Part shown: piece after piece, positions 4,937 through 52,062 of the stretch
How the letters are laid out: each line of letters opens with the position of its first letter
Numbering within the stretch: position 1 is the stretch's first letter
NCBI GenBank assembly: GCA_951406725.2
Contig: OX597816.1
Coordinates: forward strand, 131,006,001-131,070,000
DNA from: Octopus vulgaris
Lineage: Eukaryota
Direction: 5' to 3'
DNA length: 64,000 nucleotides
The notes under the pieces: model-generated
Seen by the model: the letters and a program-made list of their open reading frames with translations, nothing else
Databases searched by the model: none
What the model was told of the DNA's origin: nothing
Position numbers and translations under genes: made by a program

Positions 4937-4977
4937 AACTTCCGACGAACGCTAACGTGAAACTCTGAGTAACGGTT
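4937..4977 (+). ncRNA. Hammerhead-like motif (CCGACGA core) in a pLTR-like fragment
   Basis: AACUU CCGACGA ACG-CUAA-CGU GAAA CUC U GAG UA ACGGUU. Homologous to the motifs at 26690 and 26796; stem I is partly degenerate. Confidence 0.65.
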
Positions 4978-5034
4978 TATGAAGATGATTTTTTTCTGCT
5001 TTGATAAAAATATGTATACATACATTTTTACATA

Positions 5035-5919
5035 CGTGGTCTGATCAATAAATATCCGGACTGTTGCCATAGTAACGAAGCTTAAGCACTGCACAGACTG
5101 ACCTTGAATGCTGCTGTATATGCACACAACGTTTTAACGTTCTAGCTAACTTCCGCTGTTTACAACAGTGCTCGGAAGTAACGCGTGTAGCTTGTGATCG
5201 TCGCATTCACCATGACAGAGAGAGTTGAGCAGGGAGTCTGCATCAAATTTTGCCAAAAGCTTGGCGATACCTGCTCAGATGCCTACGCAAAGTTTTCAAA
5301 AGATTTTCATCGTTCTCGACACAATCAAGATCTTGTGCAACTGAAATCCGAGTGTCTTTTTGGTCAGCTGAAAGCAGTTTTGGCACAAACTCGGCAGAAA
5401 CTTGGAGTCTCATACCCAAATCTTCAGTGATAATGGACTGAATTGAACCGTGACTAACCTGCACATCTTCTTATAACTCACGGATGGTGATTCGAAGATT
5501 TCCCCTTTGAGCTGCGCGCACATCTGCAATGTTTTTCTCAATTCCGCTGGTTGTGGGTCTCCCAGGACGTTCGTCAATATCGACTCTTTTCGACCATCTT
5601 GGAAACATCTGAAACACTCCTACATTTGTATGCAGCTCATACACTCCTCTCCATACACTTTCTGAAACTTTGTGTAAGCCTCTGAGTAGGAATCGCCATG
5701 ACAACTTTCTGTATCACAGTCAATGCGACGATCACATGCTACACTCTTCCTTCCAAGCAATGCTGCAAGCAATGTGCTAGAACGGAAGTGAGCTAGAATG
5801 TTAAAAGTTTATGCACATGCACAGCAAGTTCACGGTCAATTTTTGTCTAACGGCTTCACTCTACGTGCTTTAGCTTCGTTACTATAGCAACAGTCCGGAT
5901 GCTTATTGATCAGACCTCG
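5035..5919. mobile_element. Mariner-derived fold-back element made of two 5' ends head to head
   Basis: TIRs cg(t/a)ggtctgatcaataa..atccggactgttgc.atagtaacgaagct flanked by TA. The plus strand encodes MTERVEQGVCIKFCQKLG. The minus strand carries frameshifted transposase N-terminal pieces (ERPGRPTT, RITIREL, SIITEDLGMR, FVPKLLSADQK). Confidence 0.85.
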
Positions 5920-6649: not shown

Positions 6650-8500
6650 TCATGTCCTGATACATTTCCTGCTGTGGCTGTGTAGTCCTATCCTGGACAA
6701 ACACTCCCTCTGGCAACTACCGCAAATGTAGCGAAGATTGTTCCTGGCTGGTTGTAGTGCCATAGTCTCTTGTTTACGTCTCTTCCTTTCTTTCCATTTC
6801 TCCTCTCGCTCTCTGTCCCTCTTTTGTATTCCCTCTTTTACTGTACGTTGCCATTTTCCACGGTTGCCGGCAACTGCCCCCCAACCGCTAAAATTGATGT
6901 TGCAGGCCTTCATATCCCTTTTGCAAACATCCCTGTAACGTAAGATCGGTCTACCCACAGACCTAGTACCCCTAGCAAGCCCTCCGTAGAGTATGTCCTT
7001 GGGGATTCTGCCATCTTTCATACGGCTAACATGCCCAAGCCATCTCATACGTCTTTGTGTGAGGAGTGCAAACATTCTTGGTATTCCTGCTTGCCTGAGG
7101 ACATCTTTGTTGAGGGTATGATTCTGCCATTTGATGCGGAGGATTTTTCGGAGGCAGCGGAGGTGAAAGATGTTTAGGCGACGCTCTTGGCGTGTGTATA
7201 GCGTCCAGGTCTCGCTTCCATACAGTAGAGTGCTGAGTACACATGCCTGGTAGATCTTCATTTTCGTGGTCTTGGTCAGCTTATTGTTGTCCCAAGCCCG
7301 TTTGGAGAGTTGGGCCATCGCAGCAGCTGCCTTGCCAATGCGTATATTGAGCTCAGCGTCAAGGGATATGTTGTAGGTGACGGTAGAGCCCAGATAGGTA
7401 AACTTATCCACCTCTTGTAATCTGTGGTCTCCAATATGTATGTTTGGGATGTCCGATGTAGCCTGGCCCATGATGTTGGTCTTCTTAAGGCTGATAGCTA
7501 AGCCAAAGTCGTTACATGCTTGCTCAAAACAGTTAATGAGCCTTTGGAGGGCTTCTTCTGTGTGTGTTACCAGAGTGGCATCATCAGCAAATAACATCTT
7601 GATCAGGACGTTTCTGATTTTGGTCTTGGCACGCAGGCGCGAGAGATTGAACAGTTTCCCGTCACTTCTACTGTGCAGAAACACTCCATCATCTGATGTC
7701 TGAAAGGCATGTGAAAGTAAGAGTGAGAAGAAGATGCCAAACAATGTAGGAGCGAGGACACAGCCTTGCTTTACCCCGTTTTTTATTTGGAAGGCGGCTG
7801 ATGTTGAACCGTTGTGCTGTATGGTGCCTTGCATGTCATCATGGAAAGACTTGATGATCCTCAGCAGCTTTGGTGGACATCCGATTTTTTGGAGCAGGAG
7901 GAAGAGGCCTGTTCTGCTTACCGAGTCAAAAGCCTTTGTTAGATCAATGAAGGCCATATATAATGGCATTTTCTGCTCTCTGGACTTCTCCTGAAGTTGG
8001 CGTATGGAGAATATCATATCGATAGTTGATCTGCTTCTTCTAAAGCCACACTGCGATTCCGGATAGATTCGAGAAGCAAGTAGTTGTAGCCTGGCCAGGA
8101 TAACGCGGGCAAAGGTCTTTCCAACAGTGCTTAGAAGGGATATGCCACGGTAATTGTTACAATCACCACGGTCACCTTTGTTTTTGTAAAGCGTAATGAT
8201 GTTGGCATCCCGCATATCCTGAGGGACTGTACCCTCTTCCCAGCACTGACACAGAAGTTCATGAAGGTGCCGAAGCAGGATGGTGTTTTTGCCGGCTTTG
8301 ATGATCTCTGAGGGGATGCCGTCTTTTCCCGGAGCCTTATTTCTTGCTAGAGAGTCAACAGCCTTGGTGAGCTCTGCTATAGATGGCGGACAGTCAAGTT
8401 CGCACATGACTGGCAAGATCTTGACACTCTCGACTGCAGCCTCAGCCACTGTGGTGTCCCGTGAGTAGAGATCCTGGTAGTGCTCCACCCATCTATCCAT
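6650..8500 (-). CDS. RTE reverse transcriptase ORF segment (616 aa), cut off from the upstream part by a frameshift
   Basis: KAPGKDGIP, NYRGISLLS, PESQCGFR, FIDLTKAFDSV, GVKQGCVLAPTLF, MLFADD, FTYLGS, LLYGSETW, RWLGHV, CGSC..GLHSH..C. Confidence 0.9.
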   Translation of the reverse strand: MDRWVEHYQDLYSRDTTVAEAAVESVKILPVMCELDCPPSIAELTKAVDSLARNKAPGKDGIPSEIIKAGKNTILLRHLHELLCQCWEEGTVPQDMRDANIITLYKNKGDRGDCNNYRGISLLSTVGKTFARVILARLQLLASRIYPESQCGFRRSRSTIDMIFSIRQLQEKSREQKMPLYMAFIDLTKAFDSVSRTGLFLLLQKIGCPPKLLRIIKSFHDDMQGTIQHNGSTSAAFQIKNGVKQGCVLAPTLFGIFFSLLLSHAFQTSDDGVFLHSRSDGKLFNLSRLRAKTKIRNVLIKMLFADDATLVTHTEEALQRLINCFEQACNDFGLAISLKKTNIMGQATSDIPNIHIGDHRLQEVDKFTYLGSTVTYNISLDAELNIRIGKAAAAMAQLSKRAWDNNKLTKTTKMKIYQACVLSTLLYGSETWTLYTRQERRLNIFHLRCLRKILRIKWQNHTLNKDVLRQAGIPRMFALLTQRRMRWLGHVSRMKDGRIPKDILYGGLARGTRSVGRPILRYRDVCKRDMKACNINFSGWGAVAGNRGKWQRTVKEGIQKRDREREEKWKERKRRKQETMALQPARNNLRYICGSCQRECLSRIGLHSHSRKCIRT

Positions 8501-8541
8501 TTGCTTGCCTTGATCCCTGATGAGATCTCCAGTAGTTGATT

Positions 8542-9187
8542 TCAGAGGGGATGAATGGTTGCGGATGGGCCGAGGGCCTTCTTCAAACCGGCATACATCC
8601 CACGGGTGTCGCCCCTGTCAGCAGCTGACTGGATACTCTGACAGATTTCCTGCCAATACCTATTTGCACAGCGTCTGGCTGTCAGTTGGGTTTTATTTCG
8701 TGCCTTTCTGAGTTCTTCGAGTGACTTTGTAGAAGAGTCACTCTTGTATTGCACCAGAGCTGCACGCTTTGCTTCGATAACTGGCTCCAGCATTGAGAGC
8801 CCAGCATTGAACCAATCTGGGTTTTGCCTTTCTCTCATGCCGAAAGTATCCAATGATGTCGTATACAAGGCTTCCTTGATATAGTCCCACCTACTTTCAG
8901 CAGAGGAGGTTGGGCAGCTACTGAGGGCAACCTTGATAGAAGCAGCAAAACATTTTCGCAGTGTAGGGTCCGAGGTTCTGGCGGTGTTGATGCGTGGTCG
9001 GCCCACTTTTTTGGAGCGATGGACTTTTTTAGGCAGAGTCCTCACCCTGCTTCTAATTAGTGAGTGGTCTGTGTCACAATCCGCGCTGTGGTAACTGCGG
9101 GTCAATAGAGTAGAATTCAGAAAGGATCTCCGTGTAATGATGAGATCCAGCTGATGCCAGTGGTGAGATCTTGGATGTCTCCAGCTA
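8542..9187 (-). pseudogene. RTE endonuclease C-terminus and linker, frameshifted relative to the RT ORF
   Basis: SWRHPRSHHWHQLD, RSYHSADCDTDHSL, QNPDWF, ARRCANRYW, GMYAGLKKALGP; the frame breaks at about 8540. Confidence 0.85.
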
Positions 9188-10279
9188 CCGAGTTGTTTTG
9201 GCACTTATTTCTAGCAATGCTGATACCACTTAGTACCATCAGTCACGTTAGTGATGTCTATAAATTTGCCTTTAGTTTGTTAAATTGCTAATAAACCACC
9301 CATATTATTTGTGAAGAGATATATGGATTTAATTGAGTAATATTAAGTGCAAAAGCATTTATACAACATGATTTTCAACTACCTTAATTTCCATATGGAT
9401 CGCTGATAATTAAAGAATATTTTGCTAATTATGGAGCGAACTGAATACTGGATTGCCAGTTTATCTGTGGCAAATTCGGTCTCAAAACAACCTGAATCAT
9501 ACATAAATCTAGTCACAATGGAACACCTGCAATGAGATACGAGTTCACAGTTGATGAGATTGTTATTCAATACGTCAGTTGCTCTAAACTAACTTCTACT
9601 TACATGTTTAGAAAGTTTCTTAAATGGAAAAATAGTTTCAATGAAATGATTAAACGTTTCCTTTTACGTTTTTTGCAAGCTATTTTGTTCTTTTTTCCAT
9701 TAATTCTCACTTATATATTAGTTTTTATTTAGTTGTGATATAAACCTCGAATCTGCTGGTTAACTATCTACAACAGAGCATATTTGTTCCTAAATATTCT
9801 CTTTTCACGATAACACAATAACAATTTTATTTACTTAATTTTTGCTTTTATTATATTATCCCCCATTTCCACTCCATAGTTATCTGATCCTTTGAACTTG
9901 CTATTCAGTTTAGTCGTTATATGACCATTTTTCTCAGTGACCACATCACACCGTTGCCTTTTATTTCATTCAGTAGCCATTAACACATACTCCCATGTCC
10001 CTTATAAACACATTTTTGTCTGGGTTAAACTTACTAAAAAGCGGTGTGAAAATGTTACTTCCGGCCTACTTTCTGAAAGAGCGAAAACCTGCCTAATCTT
10101 TATGGTCGTTATGTAGAAGAAAGTTTAAGAAAATTAATACCAGAATTAAAAACCGTAATGGCATTGAAAATGTCAAAGAATTAAGGAGATATACAGTGAT
10201 ATCCTATTTCTTCAGTTACAACAATATTCTCAACGGTATGGGAAGCAAATTGTTGTATTAGAAGCCTCACATTAGAGCA

Positions 10280-14340: not shown

Positions 14341-14382
14341 CTAATGTAGGATAAAATTTTTTCGGGAAAAAATTACAAATAC

Positions 14383-15836
14383 TCAAACTTACAAATACTT
14401 AGGAATCCATGAACTAGATAAGACACAACACACACAAATGAAAGAGAAAATAAAAAAAGAATATTATAGACGAGTTAGATCAATACTAAACACAGAGCTC
14501 AATGCTAAAAACAAGATAATAGGTATCAACACTTTAGCTGTCCCAGTTATAAGTTACAGCTACAATATCCTTAACTGGACACGAAATGAACTGTCCAAAA
14601 TAGATAGGAAAACAAGAAAAATACTGACAGGATCTAGGATGCATCACCCAAAATCTGACATAGAAAGACTATATATACAACGTATAGAAGGTGGTAGAGG
14701 CCTTATACAGCTGGAAAACTACTATAAAATAACCACCATAGGACTGCAAAAATATCTACTTCAGAAGGAAGGAAAACTGATCCAGATAGCAGCAAAACAC
14801 GAGCAAAACAAAAAACTGTTCTCAGTATTTAAGGAAGCTGACAAATACAAACAAGAAATCATACCACCTAATAAACATGAAGAAGAAGAAGAAGATGATG
14901 AAGAAACAACAAAAGCTATAAAACAAATGAAATCCAAACTAAAAATAGAACAGCAACGAACCATGATAAAACGATGACAAGAAAAGCCCCTTCATGGTAA
15001 ATATTGCACTAAACTAAACGCAAAAGAAATAGACAAAGAAAAATCCCAGCAATGGCTGAGAAGCTCAGGACTCAAAGCAGAAACAGAGGGATTTTTAATT
15101 GCAGCACAAGACCAAAGCCTCCCCACCAGAAATTACCAAAAACATGTAATGAAAAGAAATATTACAAGTAACTGCAGAATATGTGGAGATGGACAAGAAA
15201 CAATAAATCATATTATCTCTAGCTGTCCAGTCCTGGCTAAGAAGGAATATATTCACAGACATGACAGAGTTGGAACCTACATACATTGGAAGCTATGCCA
15301 ACATTATGGAATAACAACAGAAAAAAAGATGGGATAGGCACACACCAGAAAAGGTCACAGAAAACGAGAAAGCAACCATACTCTGGGATATGCCGATACA
15401 CACAGATAGAGAAATTAAGGCCAACAGACCAAATATAGTTGTCAGAGATCATGAAGAAAAAAATGCTTTCTAATTGATGTATCAATACCGGCAGATGACA
15501 ACGTGTCTCTAAAAGAAATGGAGAAACTCTCAAAATACAAAGACCTGGAAATAGAGGTAACTAGAATGTGGAATCTGAAAACAGAAACAATTCCTATCAT
15601 AGTAGGTGCATTAGGCATGATAAAAAAATATTCAGACAAATACATAACAAAAACACCAGGACTTACAAACACATATAACATACAGAAAATTGCACTACTA
15701 GGCACTGCACACATCCTACGCAGAACACTTTCCATACAATAACCATCAGAGCATCACAACAAATCACAGCACATACCCAAGGCACACAGAGCTGCGCTCG
15801 GTAGTGAAGTGAAAGCACGCTATAAAAATAAAACTA

Positions 15837-26795: not shown

Positions 26796-26840
26796 AAACT
26801 GTCCAACGAAAGGGAACATGAAATTCTGAGTAACAGATTT
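26796..26840 (+). ncRNA. Degenerate hammerhead-like motif
   Basis: AAAACUGU CCAACGA AAG-GGAA-CAU GAAA UUC U GAG UA ACAGAUUU. Confidence 0.5.
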
Positions 26841-48166: not shown

Positions 48167-48658
48167 CGAGGTAGTATCAAAAAGTTCCCGAACTAGCTCT
48201 GTAGCGCACCAACAGATGGCAGCACATGGTTGCGTGTGCACTGAGAACTAGCAGTGTCCTTCATAAGGTAGTGTGCAGAGTGAGATCGCTATGCTTACTT
48301 CGCAAATTGTGAAATCTGTGTTTTTGTGATCACGTTTATACTGCGATTTTTTCATGGACAGGAGGTTGGAAGAAAGAGCGAACGTGAAATTTTGCGTTAA
48401 ACTTGGGAAGTTTGCTACAGAGACATTGAGCATGCTTCGACAAGCCTACAGCAACGAGGCAATGGGTTGTATGCAATGTTTCAAATGGCACGGGCGCACG
48501 ACAGAGCTGCAACTCAGTCAAGAGCATGCTCATCGTTTTGTTTTTCGACATCCACGATATCGTGCATCGAGAAAACGTCCCACAAAGTTAGACCATCAAT
48601 CGAAAGTTCTACTGCGACGTTTTGAAGCGTTTGAGGGGGGACATTCGGTGAAAGCGAC

Positions 48659-48661
<3 letters not shown>
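48167..48661 (+). mobile_element. Mariner 5' portion, internally deleted, inserted in (TA)n
   Basis: Left TIR TA|cgaggtagtatcaaaaagttcccgaact; MDRRLEERANVKFCVKLGKFATETLSMLRQAY; downstream KSMLIVL, FFDIHDIVH, FYCDVLKRLR. Confidence 0.85.
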
Positions 48662-48708
<47 letters not shown>

Positions 48709-49619
48709 GGTATGTAACGTTGGGTTGATCATGTATGAAACTGAAGAGATCTTAACCATATTGATTCTTTCAAATAAGTTGATAAAATAACTACTAGTGT
48801 GCTGGTTAACTATATCTATGGAAGCTTGAAAATTACAACGCTGATTATGGCATCAAATGGAAAATTTTAGAATGAATTAGTCCGTACACGAAACGGGTCA
48901 AGAATTGTCAGCTATGTGCAACGGGAAAATTGCAGATAATAATGAACTTGAAAAATTCTACGAATTACTTAAACATCAGAACATATTTTTCACAAGTCAC
49001 CCTCACTTTAATAAGTACTTTCTAAGCCAATAGAAAATACTATCCACACTAGATTAGTAAAATAAACTTGCCAACATCTAACAGTCACCGTACTCACTAT
49101 GGATTCCCAAACTCCTTACCTCTTGATTTGTTTCTTATAATTTTCCACATTGATACTCAGATTTTACATGATGTTTCCACATTTTTAAAATAAACATTTT
49201 TTAGAACATCCCACTGATTAAATAGACCCTCAAGTTTTTCCCATGTCTGTCACACAGGCATCGTCATACACTTCTGCATATCTAATTCACCCAAAGATAT
49301 CTACATGAACAGCTTAACTACTGTATTTATAGGATAGGACAAGGCTGCTTCTCTTTGCGGATGAGTGACAGTACCCATGAATACAAGTCTCCCTCGTACC
49401 ACTAATATTTATTCAAAAGAAAAACCACCATTTTAAAGCCGATATAGCTTTGAACCAATCACGCAGGCATGGCTGCCAGCAAGAAAATAAGAATCAAAGG
49501 AAAGTGAACAGAATATTAAAAAACAATAAGCCTGAGGTACTGTGAGATTGAAGCTGATAACTAAAATTGCTATTTAAAATAGGAATAATATGAACTAGGA
49601 CTGACACTCACATCCCGGC

Positions 49620-50848: not shown

Positions 50849-51089
50849 TAGTAGAAACACCCGTCGTCAACTAGTTTGAAAGAAGCTGGCAGAACTGTAC
50901 TATGAATATTGAAAGTTATTCACGCTGATCGTATTGAACATAAATAAGAAATGGGTGTTAAGTTTCATGTAGATAATAGAGCTGTACCCTTCTGGCAAAT
51001 ATATCAGAAATGACTGCCAACTTTCATGCGAACGATAGAGCTGTTTTCTTCTGGCCAATACTATCATATCTATTATATCATCACACACT

Positions 51090-51131
<42 letters not shown>

Positions 51132-51223
51132 ATAAAAAGTAACAACAAAAGAATGAGACCTCGATATTAGATAAATAGAAGACTGTTTATATATGTTGTA
51201 ATTTAGAACAAACTGTAGAAGGA

Positions 51224-51297
51224 TGTCATTATAGTACTCAGAGTTTCGAATGTCGGAACAAAGAGCTACGATGCATTCTCGTCGGCGATTAATGACA
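51224..51297 (-). ncRNA. Type-I hammerhead-like motif with long stems I and II (CCGACGA core)
   Basis: UGUCAUU-A-AUCG CCGACGA GAAUG-CA-UCG-uagcucuuuguuc-CGA-CAUUC GAAA CUC U GAG UA CUAU-AAUGACA; predicted cleavage after GUA, between 51235 and 51234. Confidence 0.75.
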
Positions 51298-51597
51298 ACA
51301 GACACTATAAAAACCGTTGAATAAAATGGTAGTTACTCTAATAGGTAGAAAAAGAAGAAAGATAAAGATTAAAAAATACACGCAAAGATTTTCTTACAAT
51401 ACATAGACATAAACCTCCTGCGTTCACAACGTCTGCATACGTACACACTCACACAAACATGTATACGTACATGCACATACACACACACAAACATATATGT
51501 GTATATACGTACTCATACATACGCACATATCCACACATATATCATATATATATATATATATATATATTATACTGTGAGTGTACATACATATATATAT

Positions 51598-52062
<465 letters not shown>

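Follow-up and report, generated by a model that had tools for sequence, protein, structure and literature searches.

Minimal, dimeric hammerheads of Penelope-like elements (PLEs) are said to have been described by Lunse et al. 2017. Among described systems, those closest to the motif analysed here are the hammerheads of Hydra-clade PLEs (Craig et al. 2021, PMC8557442), including Hydra-1_Obim and Hydra-1/2_Ajap: type I motifs on the sense strand, near the 3' end of an element that encodes a reverse transcriptase (RT) with RWK, DKT and CxC-x5-C motifs as well as a GIY-YIG endonuclease at the C terminus and that has (TA)n targets. Stem III is palindromic in these hammerheads, and actc-n-gagt itself is found in three listed families from sea cucumber and coral (Hydra-1_aJap, Hydra-2_aJap and Hydra-2_aMil; PMC8557442 File S2). 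Hammerheads of Hydra elements, an octopus one included, are already published; Hydra-1_Obim represents a different family from the one described below, with the motif ctgaagag and acca-a-tggt. Passages of a second study (Cervera and de la Pena 2014, PMC4209133) describe minimal dimeric PLE hammerheads in terminal repeats, mostly as scattered single truncated copies, with palindromic helix III, long helix II and G10.1-C11.1, and passages of PMC4209133 and PMC6765202 describe PLE hammerheads as slow and acting as dimers. For an anole PLE hammerhead, part of PMC11167929 reports that cleavage is protein-assisted and is dispensable for insertion in vitro. A change of core position 4 from U to C (U4C) is found in the natural hammerhead of a viroid (see Perreault et al. 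2011, PMC3088659), where, in the portion of that paper that treats it, it lowers activity in vitro, still supports viroid infectivity and is regarded as a tolerated variant. Non-LTR retrozymes, as presented in parts of PMC7229834 and bioRxiv 10.64898/2026.07.22.740005, likewise carry a type I hammerhead within an animal repeat related to PLEs, one made of tandem non-coding units of 150-450 bp.

We analysed a stretch of 64,000 nucleotides of Octopus vulgaris DNA (the window), in which a U4C hammerhead candidate cut at 51235/51234 had been proposed. The minus strand at 51297-51224 has a type I layout with the core CCGACGA/GAA and with the core and site letters as proposed (Table 1). The motif has the hammerhead consensus positions C3, G5, A6, G8, A9, G12, A13, A14, A15.1-U16.1 and H17, and lacks the consensus U4, having C4 instead. 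The two long stems are also as they had been drawn: stem I has ten pairs with one mismatch, C51287 x U51233, and one bulge, A51290, and stem II has 5 bp and 3 bp around a CA bulge, with three more possible pairs beyond a U x C mismatch. In comparison with the hammerheads of described Hydra elements, the motif thus has C4 rather than U4, and its stems I and II are much longer and bulged. A descriptor that accepts C or U at position 4 matches once in the whole 64-kb window, at 51297-51224, and three times in 200 block-shuffled windows (mean 0.015), so the motif is rare by chance. No Rfam hammerhead model matched the whole window at the gathering threshold or 51100-51600 at E<=10; miRNA-like Rfam matches at 51410-51600 were rejected as low-complexity and far under the gathering score. 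The free minimum-energy (MFE) fold of the window motif is not a hammerhead and is no more stable than those of shuffles (z-score -0.17). We conclude that the window motif, judged by its sequence, is a genuine U4C hammerhead motif and not a stand-alone ribozyme.

Table 1. Predicted features of the motif and of the element copy that carries it, in window coordinates
Feature	Position	Strand	Remarks
5'-truncated 3' end (3' UTR and terminal repeat) of Hydra-clade Penelope-like element, subfamily A	51131..51537	-	without remaining ORF
(TA)n tract at truncation point	51537..51571	.	
(TA)n then (CA)n tract at element 3' end	51082..51130	.	
Stem I, 5' strand	51286..51298	-	private C51287 breaks second pair; private U51295 closes family C x A mismatch
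Core 5' half CCGACGA (U4C)	51279..51285	-	C3 51285, C4 51284, G5 51283, A6 51282, C7 51281, G8 51280, A9 51279
Extended stem II	51248..51278 (31 nt)	-	5 bp (G10.1-C11.1), then a CA bulge and 3 bp, then a U x C mismatch, 3 bp and a loop of 5 nt
Core 3' half G12-A13-A14	51245..51247	-	same letters in 37-39 of 39 other copies
Palindromic stem III ACUC-N-GAGU	51236..51244	-	N = U in window copy, C in family; A15.1 51244 - U16.1 51236
Predicted cleavage site, after GUA (A17 51235)	51235/51234	-	about 104 nt from element 3' end; read from sequence and established hammerhead numbering
Stem I, 3' strand	51222..51234	-	private change U51223

A search of the 2.8-Gb genome with the repeat that contains the window motif returned 1094 candidates; 40 were scored, and those other than the window copy itself were 81-86% identical to it. 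Comparison with these homologues answers a question raised with the original prediction, namely whether the C-U mismatch in stem I is paired in the consensus: A stands at 51287 in 36 of 39 other copies, and the mismatch of 51287 with 51233 is, on this alignment, private to the window copy. Stem III and the GUA site had been described as identical to those of a second hammerhead family, at 4937 and 26690 in the window (hereafter family C). The 12-mer around stem III indeed has exactly three occurrences in the window, at 4959 (+), 26710 (-) and 51247 (-), whereas the agreement in the loop letter is partly chance, because the loop letter of the element family is C (29 of 39 other copies, with T in 9) and the T of the window copy is a CpG transition from it. 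Since actc-n-gagt is already present in other Hydra elements, the sharing of stem III with family C is a trait of the clade.

The motif almost certainly belongs to the terminal repeat of a Hydra-clade PLE with RT and GIY-YIG upstream. Broken pieces of an open reading frame (ORF) lie upstream of some family copies. With this ORF as query, a same-strand motif was present downstream, inside a 1.5-kb flank, at 7 of 29 other loci; at none was it downstream on the opposite strand, and 22 had no full motif in the 1.5-kb flank examined. On longer stretches the order is ORF start, RT, endonuclease, 3' UTR and motif, with the motif on the sense strand. As expected of a terminal repeat, the motif occupies both positions at the level of the family, not in the window copy: it is upstream of the ORF start in L139, 3' of the ORF in L031 and L154, and at both ends, about 3.06 kb apart, in a copy of a sister subfamily (L135, 3746-6893). 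Among the loci mapped, no single subfamily A copy had the motif on both sides of an ORF, and inverted truncated family copies are frequent. The family ORF contains the Hydra features RMRWK, SDKT, YRDD and a CxC-x5-C linker (CSCRDKDLC); its GIY-YIG core, IIY...YVG, is Cys-free, that is, without CCHH cysteines; and at family level it has a single-ORF architecture, RT followed by a C-terminal GIY-YIG. One RT stretch has 42 of 66 residues identical to Hydra-1_Obim, counted by eye. The GIY-YIG match to Pfam PF01541 is weak (E 0.0011, 19.6 bits, under the curated cut-off), the RT fragments of the family ORF gave no Pfam match, and all ORF copies seen are broken. Many family ends run into TA/TTA tracts, and (TA)n lies on both flanks of the window copy, an uncontrolled observation; (TA)n is the target reported for Hydra elements in the pertinent part of PMC8557442. 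A first guess of Neptune-clade identity was dropped once the ORF motifs matched Hydra. A model with two different ends, a U4 motif 5' and a C4 motif 3', was prompted by L036, where motifs of B and A and an endonuclease fragment share one strand; it was rejected because the motif found at the two ends is, in each subfamily, that subfamily's own.

The window copy is a dispersed, truncated repeat of about 400 bp. It aligns at 76-85% to six longer copies, with matches that begin at 51511-51597 and stop at 51118-51194, and tblastn gave no RT or endonuclease match within the 64-kb window. Over 251 bp the window copy differs from the column majority by 12%, family copies in general by 4-13%; with such divergence, and with every ORF copy seen broken, the subfamily looks old. 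Within the window, counting motifs of every family, the nearest one on the same strand is 24.5 kb off, and the window copy is thus without a nearby partner. A repeat at 51648-51966 (-) was considered as a part of the element, since it co-occurs with several copies, and was rejected since both its orientation and its distance vary from copy to copy; it is an abundant SINE-like repeat in its own right that adjoins the element and is the same neighbour in L007 and L027. The adjacency is perhaps explained by the TA-rich tail of the SINE-like repeat as target.

The window and other mapped loci contain further mobile elements. At 6650-9204 (-) is a 655-aa open frame for a LINE-type reverse transcriptase, with an upstream frame, which from its motifs we take to be RTE-like, and a non-LTR element whose tail is a restriction-like endonuclease is represented by a broken 3' part at 14345-15742 (+), with near-identical pieces in L023 and L029. 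Stretches at 48330-48728 (+) and 5030-5300 (+) are, judging from motifs, presumably mariner-like transposase remnants. In L004 (985-1488, -) and L062 (2749-3339, -), family A copies are bordered by RT fragments from a different Penelope-like family (RYVDD/RYIDD), which suggests that PLEs insert next to each other.

The state of the core at position 4 was compared across subfamilies and families. In subfamily A, position 4 of the 39 other copies is C in 31, T in 6 and A in 2, and G5 is changed to A in 6. An exact genome scan with positions 4-5 left free gave 138 matches, the first 100 listed of which comprise 78 CG, 11 TG, 8 CA and 3 others, with C4 in 88; a single duplicated copy on C14 supplies 9 of these 100. 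Both halves of the CpG have changed to the same extent (C4 to T in 6 of 39, G5 to A in 6 of 39), so the U4 copies of subfamily A match CpG decay. We conclude that C4 is, by these sequence comparisons, the family state of subfamily A and not a peculiarity of the window copy. Sister subfamily B has 180 matches; among the first 100 listed, 94 read TG and 98 have U4. Subfamilies B and B2 (L135, 3746-6893; L127, L130, L149, L151) have canonical U4, a G as loop III and an extra C before G12. Most subfamily B matches (L069-L092) are head-to-head inverted pairs whose junction falls in or close to stem I, immediately 5' of the core; the subfamily B query is itself an inverted pair, so the excess of inverted pairs may be ascertainment.

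Family C gave 1568 exact 22-base matches, of which the 100 listed comprise 88 CG, 4 CA, 4 TG and 4 others, with C4 in 92. In L184 and L192 a Hydra-type endonuclease tail, 34% identical to the A/B protein, is located about 1.2-1.3 kb upstream of the family C motif. Family C copies have a C4 core, a 3-bp stem II with a GGAA loop and, in the family, an 8-bp stem I; the two in the window, 4942-4971 (+) and 26727-26698 (-), are damaged, and the latter has an inverted partner near 26800-26835 (+). The canonical hammerhead expected of the Hydra clade is thus absent from subfamily A and family C and present in subfamily B. All 26 Hydra rows of PMC8557442 File S2, which were found with a U4 descriptor, have U4 (ctga). 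Because U4 is found in those rows and in subfamily B, two origins of C4 are the simplest reading of the sequences, compared with one origin and reversion in B.

The view that conservation confined to the core and stem III, in families with differing stems, reflects selection on structure finds support in comparisons of copies and of subfamilies. Among 29 subfamily A copies, non-CpG differences number 54/1363 in core and stems against 215/3216 in the flanking sequence (P 2.6e-4 by a Fisher test and 0.002 by a column test), a contrast on uncorrected base composition in copies picked by similarity to the window copy. Variants common to at least three copies make much of the gap, with 9 in core and stems and 62 in flanks, a pattern that drift of active lineages outside the structure would produce. 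The pair adjacent to the core is G-C in 7/7 A rows and A-U in 7/7 B/B2 rows, and helix II in A has gained one pair, relative to B and B2, through an insertion and a substitution. In a formal covariation analysis, with few events, the score was reached in 17/500 shuffles and the number of two-sided pairs in 351/500. Together with the conservation of core and stem III across families, this sequence evidence points to selection on structure.

To the minimal dimeric PLE hammerheads the family motif is similar in its place in terminal repeats, in being scattered for the most part in truncated single copies, in its short palindromic helix III and in a predicted long helix II with G10.1-C11.1, and differs in that subfamily A has no extra nucleotide between A9 and 10.1 and has a longer helix I; the core variant given in the relevant passages of PMC4209133 is U3-A8, not C4. 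The original prediction had drawn ACUC-U-GAGU as a hairpin and had considered monomeric cleavage. A 1-nt loop cannot close, and as a monomer stem III has 3 bp and a triloop and is predicted to contribute about 0.1 kcal/mol. In secondary-structure energy models, which leave tertiary contacts out, the subfamily A majority as a monomer has an inactive MFE fold at -15.8 kcal/mol, versus -14.4 kcal/mol for the hammerhead, and as two linked copies has a double hammerhead as MFE fold at -37.4 kcal/mol; with two copies of the B or of the C majority, the MFE fold falls short of a clean double hammerhead. The three hammerhead helices, with helix I open and G10.1-C11.1, are pairings that are present and constitute a minor predicted fold. 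With more flank, the predicted hammerhead fraction of the family majority is 0.016 as a monomer and 0.081 with two copies, a modest gain. The window copy, which had been called the best-formed candidate, has a predicted hammerhead fraction of 2e-5, with the hammerhead fold 6.6 kcal/mol above its own ensemble, and ranks 12th of 17 (18 core-intact copies, one not scorable). Because stem III contributes so little and is a Hydra-type palindrome, of the dimer type seen in PLEs, dimeric or protein-assisted cleavage is likelier than monomeric cleavage.

That a single copy cleaves, with bulges in stems I and II docking to offset U4C and the weak stem III, is unlikely. Irregularities are at similar heights in subfamilies A, B and B2, where the long stem I is irregular 5-7 bp from the core and the long stem II is interrupted after 4-5 bp, and U at position 7 of the stem I 3' strand is invariant in 14/14 rows; moreover, part of PMC3088659 states that U4C in the viroid is thought to be offset by tertiary contacts. 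However, the letters at these positions mostly differ, the bulge varying by subfamily (CA bulge, C x A, G x G); within subfamily A both A (29/39) and G (9/39) occur at the position that lies 5' to the 3' strand of helix II; family C combines C4 with a 3-bp stem II and lacks such bulges; and the energies given above, from models that leave tertiary contacts out, are those of a stem III and a window-copy fold unfavourable to a monomer. A tertiary contact in the stems of A, B and B2 is possible.

Three raw RNA runs, sampled at about 6% each, contained 88, 73 and 47 family reads (208 in total) in both mate orientations; the organism label of these runs differs from that of the contig run with near-identical pieces. 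None of the 208 family reads was at least 99% alike to the window copy, the runs being possibly of a related species, and read ends did not pile up at 51235/51234, where depth was 3-13; the sole pile-up of ends was of 5 molecules at 51254 in one run. At such depth, and with runs possibly from a related species, the RNA reads speak neither for nor against cleavage. For the window copy, use as a ribozyme by the host, or a role as an independent, retrozyme-like circular RNA unit, is very improbable. Its core and GUA are intact despite its 12% divergence, and family transcripts are present at low depth; but an intact core is unremarkable, since 18 of 40 family copies have one, the window copy has diverged more than most and has a broken stem I, no read matched it at the level stated, and it is single. 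No head-to-tail array of 150-450 bp, as in retrozymes, is present at the window locus, which is one of many scattered, truncated ends of an element that codes for protein. An array on C14 (L175-L176; G000:C14:38064516-38076750) consists of seven tandem copies in units of about 1.94 kb, 97.5-99.4% alike, each with the same truncated, decayed family A motif, and two near-identical copies lie 73 and 142 kb away; we considered it as a retrozyme and rejected it as a local duplication with the decayed motif as passenger. The folding models indicate that the window copy is very probably an inactive relic.

For the family, the models and the analogy with known systems make it fairly probable that the motif is catalytically active in some setting, and, if it is active, they make it likely that it acts as a dimer or with help from a protein and not as a free monomer. 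Since published PLE hammerheads are slow, dimeric and in one case protein-dependent, and since U4C occurs in an infectious viroid, we infer a slow cutter of this dimeric or protein-assisted kind. By analogy, transcription through a pLTR-ORF-pLTR unit (about 3 kb) would join two motifs in one RNA, the stem III palindromes of the two copies would pair in 8 bp around a central C x C, and each core would cut after GUA, perhaps with help of the element protein, with U4C slowing cleavage and yet being tolerated. In a once-active element this would amount to slow cutting of RNA via a double hammerhead of two terminal copies.

An alternative is that U4C ended cutting and that the fold was kept as a signal for protein binding or packaging, or was not kept at all. 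The invariance of U4 in the 26 listed Hydra rows, with the descriptor used to find them, would fit a dead motif, as would the spread of Naiads without canonical hammerheads, the insertion of another PLE in vitro without need of cleavage (part of PMC11167929) and the lack of read ends at the cut site at low depth. We nevertheless consider this alternative unlikely: subfamily A and the distant family C both retain a cleavable NUH triplet and every other catalytic position, and the recurrence of the same single change fits a tolerated variant better than general decay. The probable explanation as a whole is therefore a Hydra-clade PLE hammerhead in a decayed copy, from a family whose motif would have cut as a slow double hammerhead, with the window copy itself inactive.

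The element is of a known kind, and the locus at 51131..51537 itself is a retroelement relic of little importance. The new point is a modest one, namely that U4C has become fixed in two lineages that were successful and that standard descriptors would miss: in the relevant part of PMC3088659 the change is a rare variant of a plant viroid, whereas here it is the fixed state of multi-copy animal retroelement families. The literature searched gave no account of U4C in PLEs or in cephalopods; such variants may be listed by Lunse et al. 2017 or in the supplements of PMC7229834 and PMC4209133. Family C, with its 1568 matches, is the most abundant hammerhead family sampled in the genome. A bolder reading, which we regard as rather doubtful, is that U4C was fixed twice in distant Hydra-clade lineages as working, throttled ribozymes missed by CUGANGA searches, with mixed dimers across families through the shared stem III; in such a mixed dimer, the loop C of subfamily A and the loop G of subfamily B would give a perfect 9-bp helix III. 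Because descriptors of animal hammerheads treat U4 as invariant, thousands of such copies would be missed, and it may be necessary to revisit, with position 4 relaxed, the claims that a hammerhead is absent from some PLE families. The U4 and C4 sister subfamilies form a natural pair for asking whether PLE hammerheads must cut fast, or at all.
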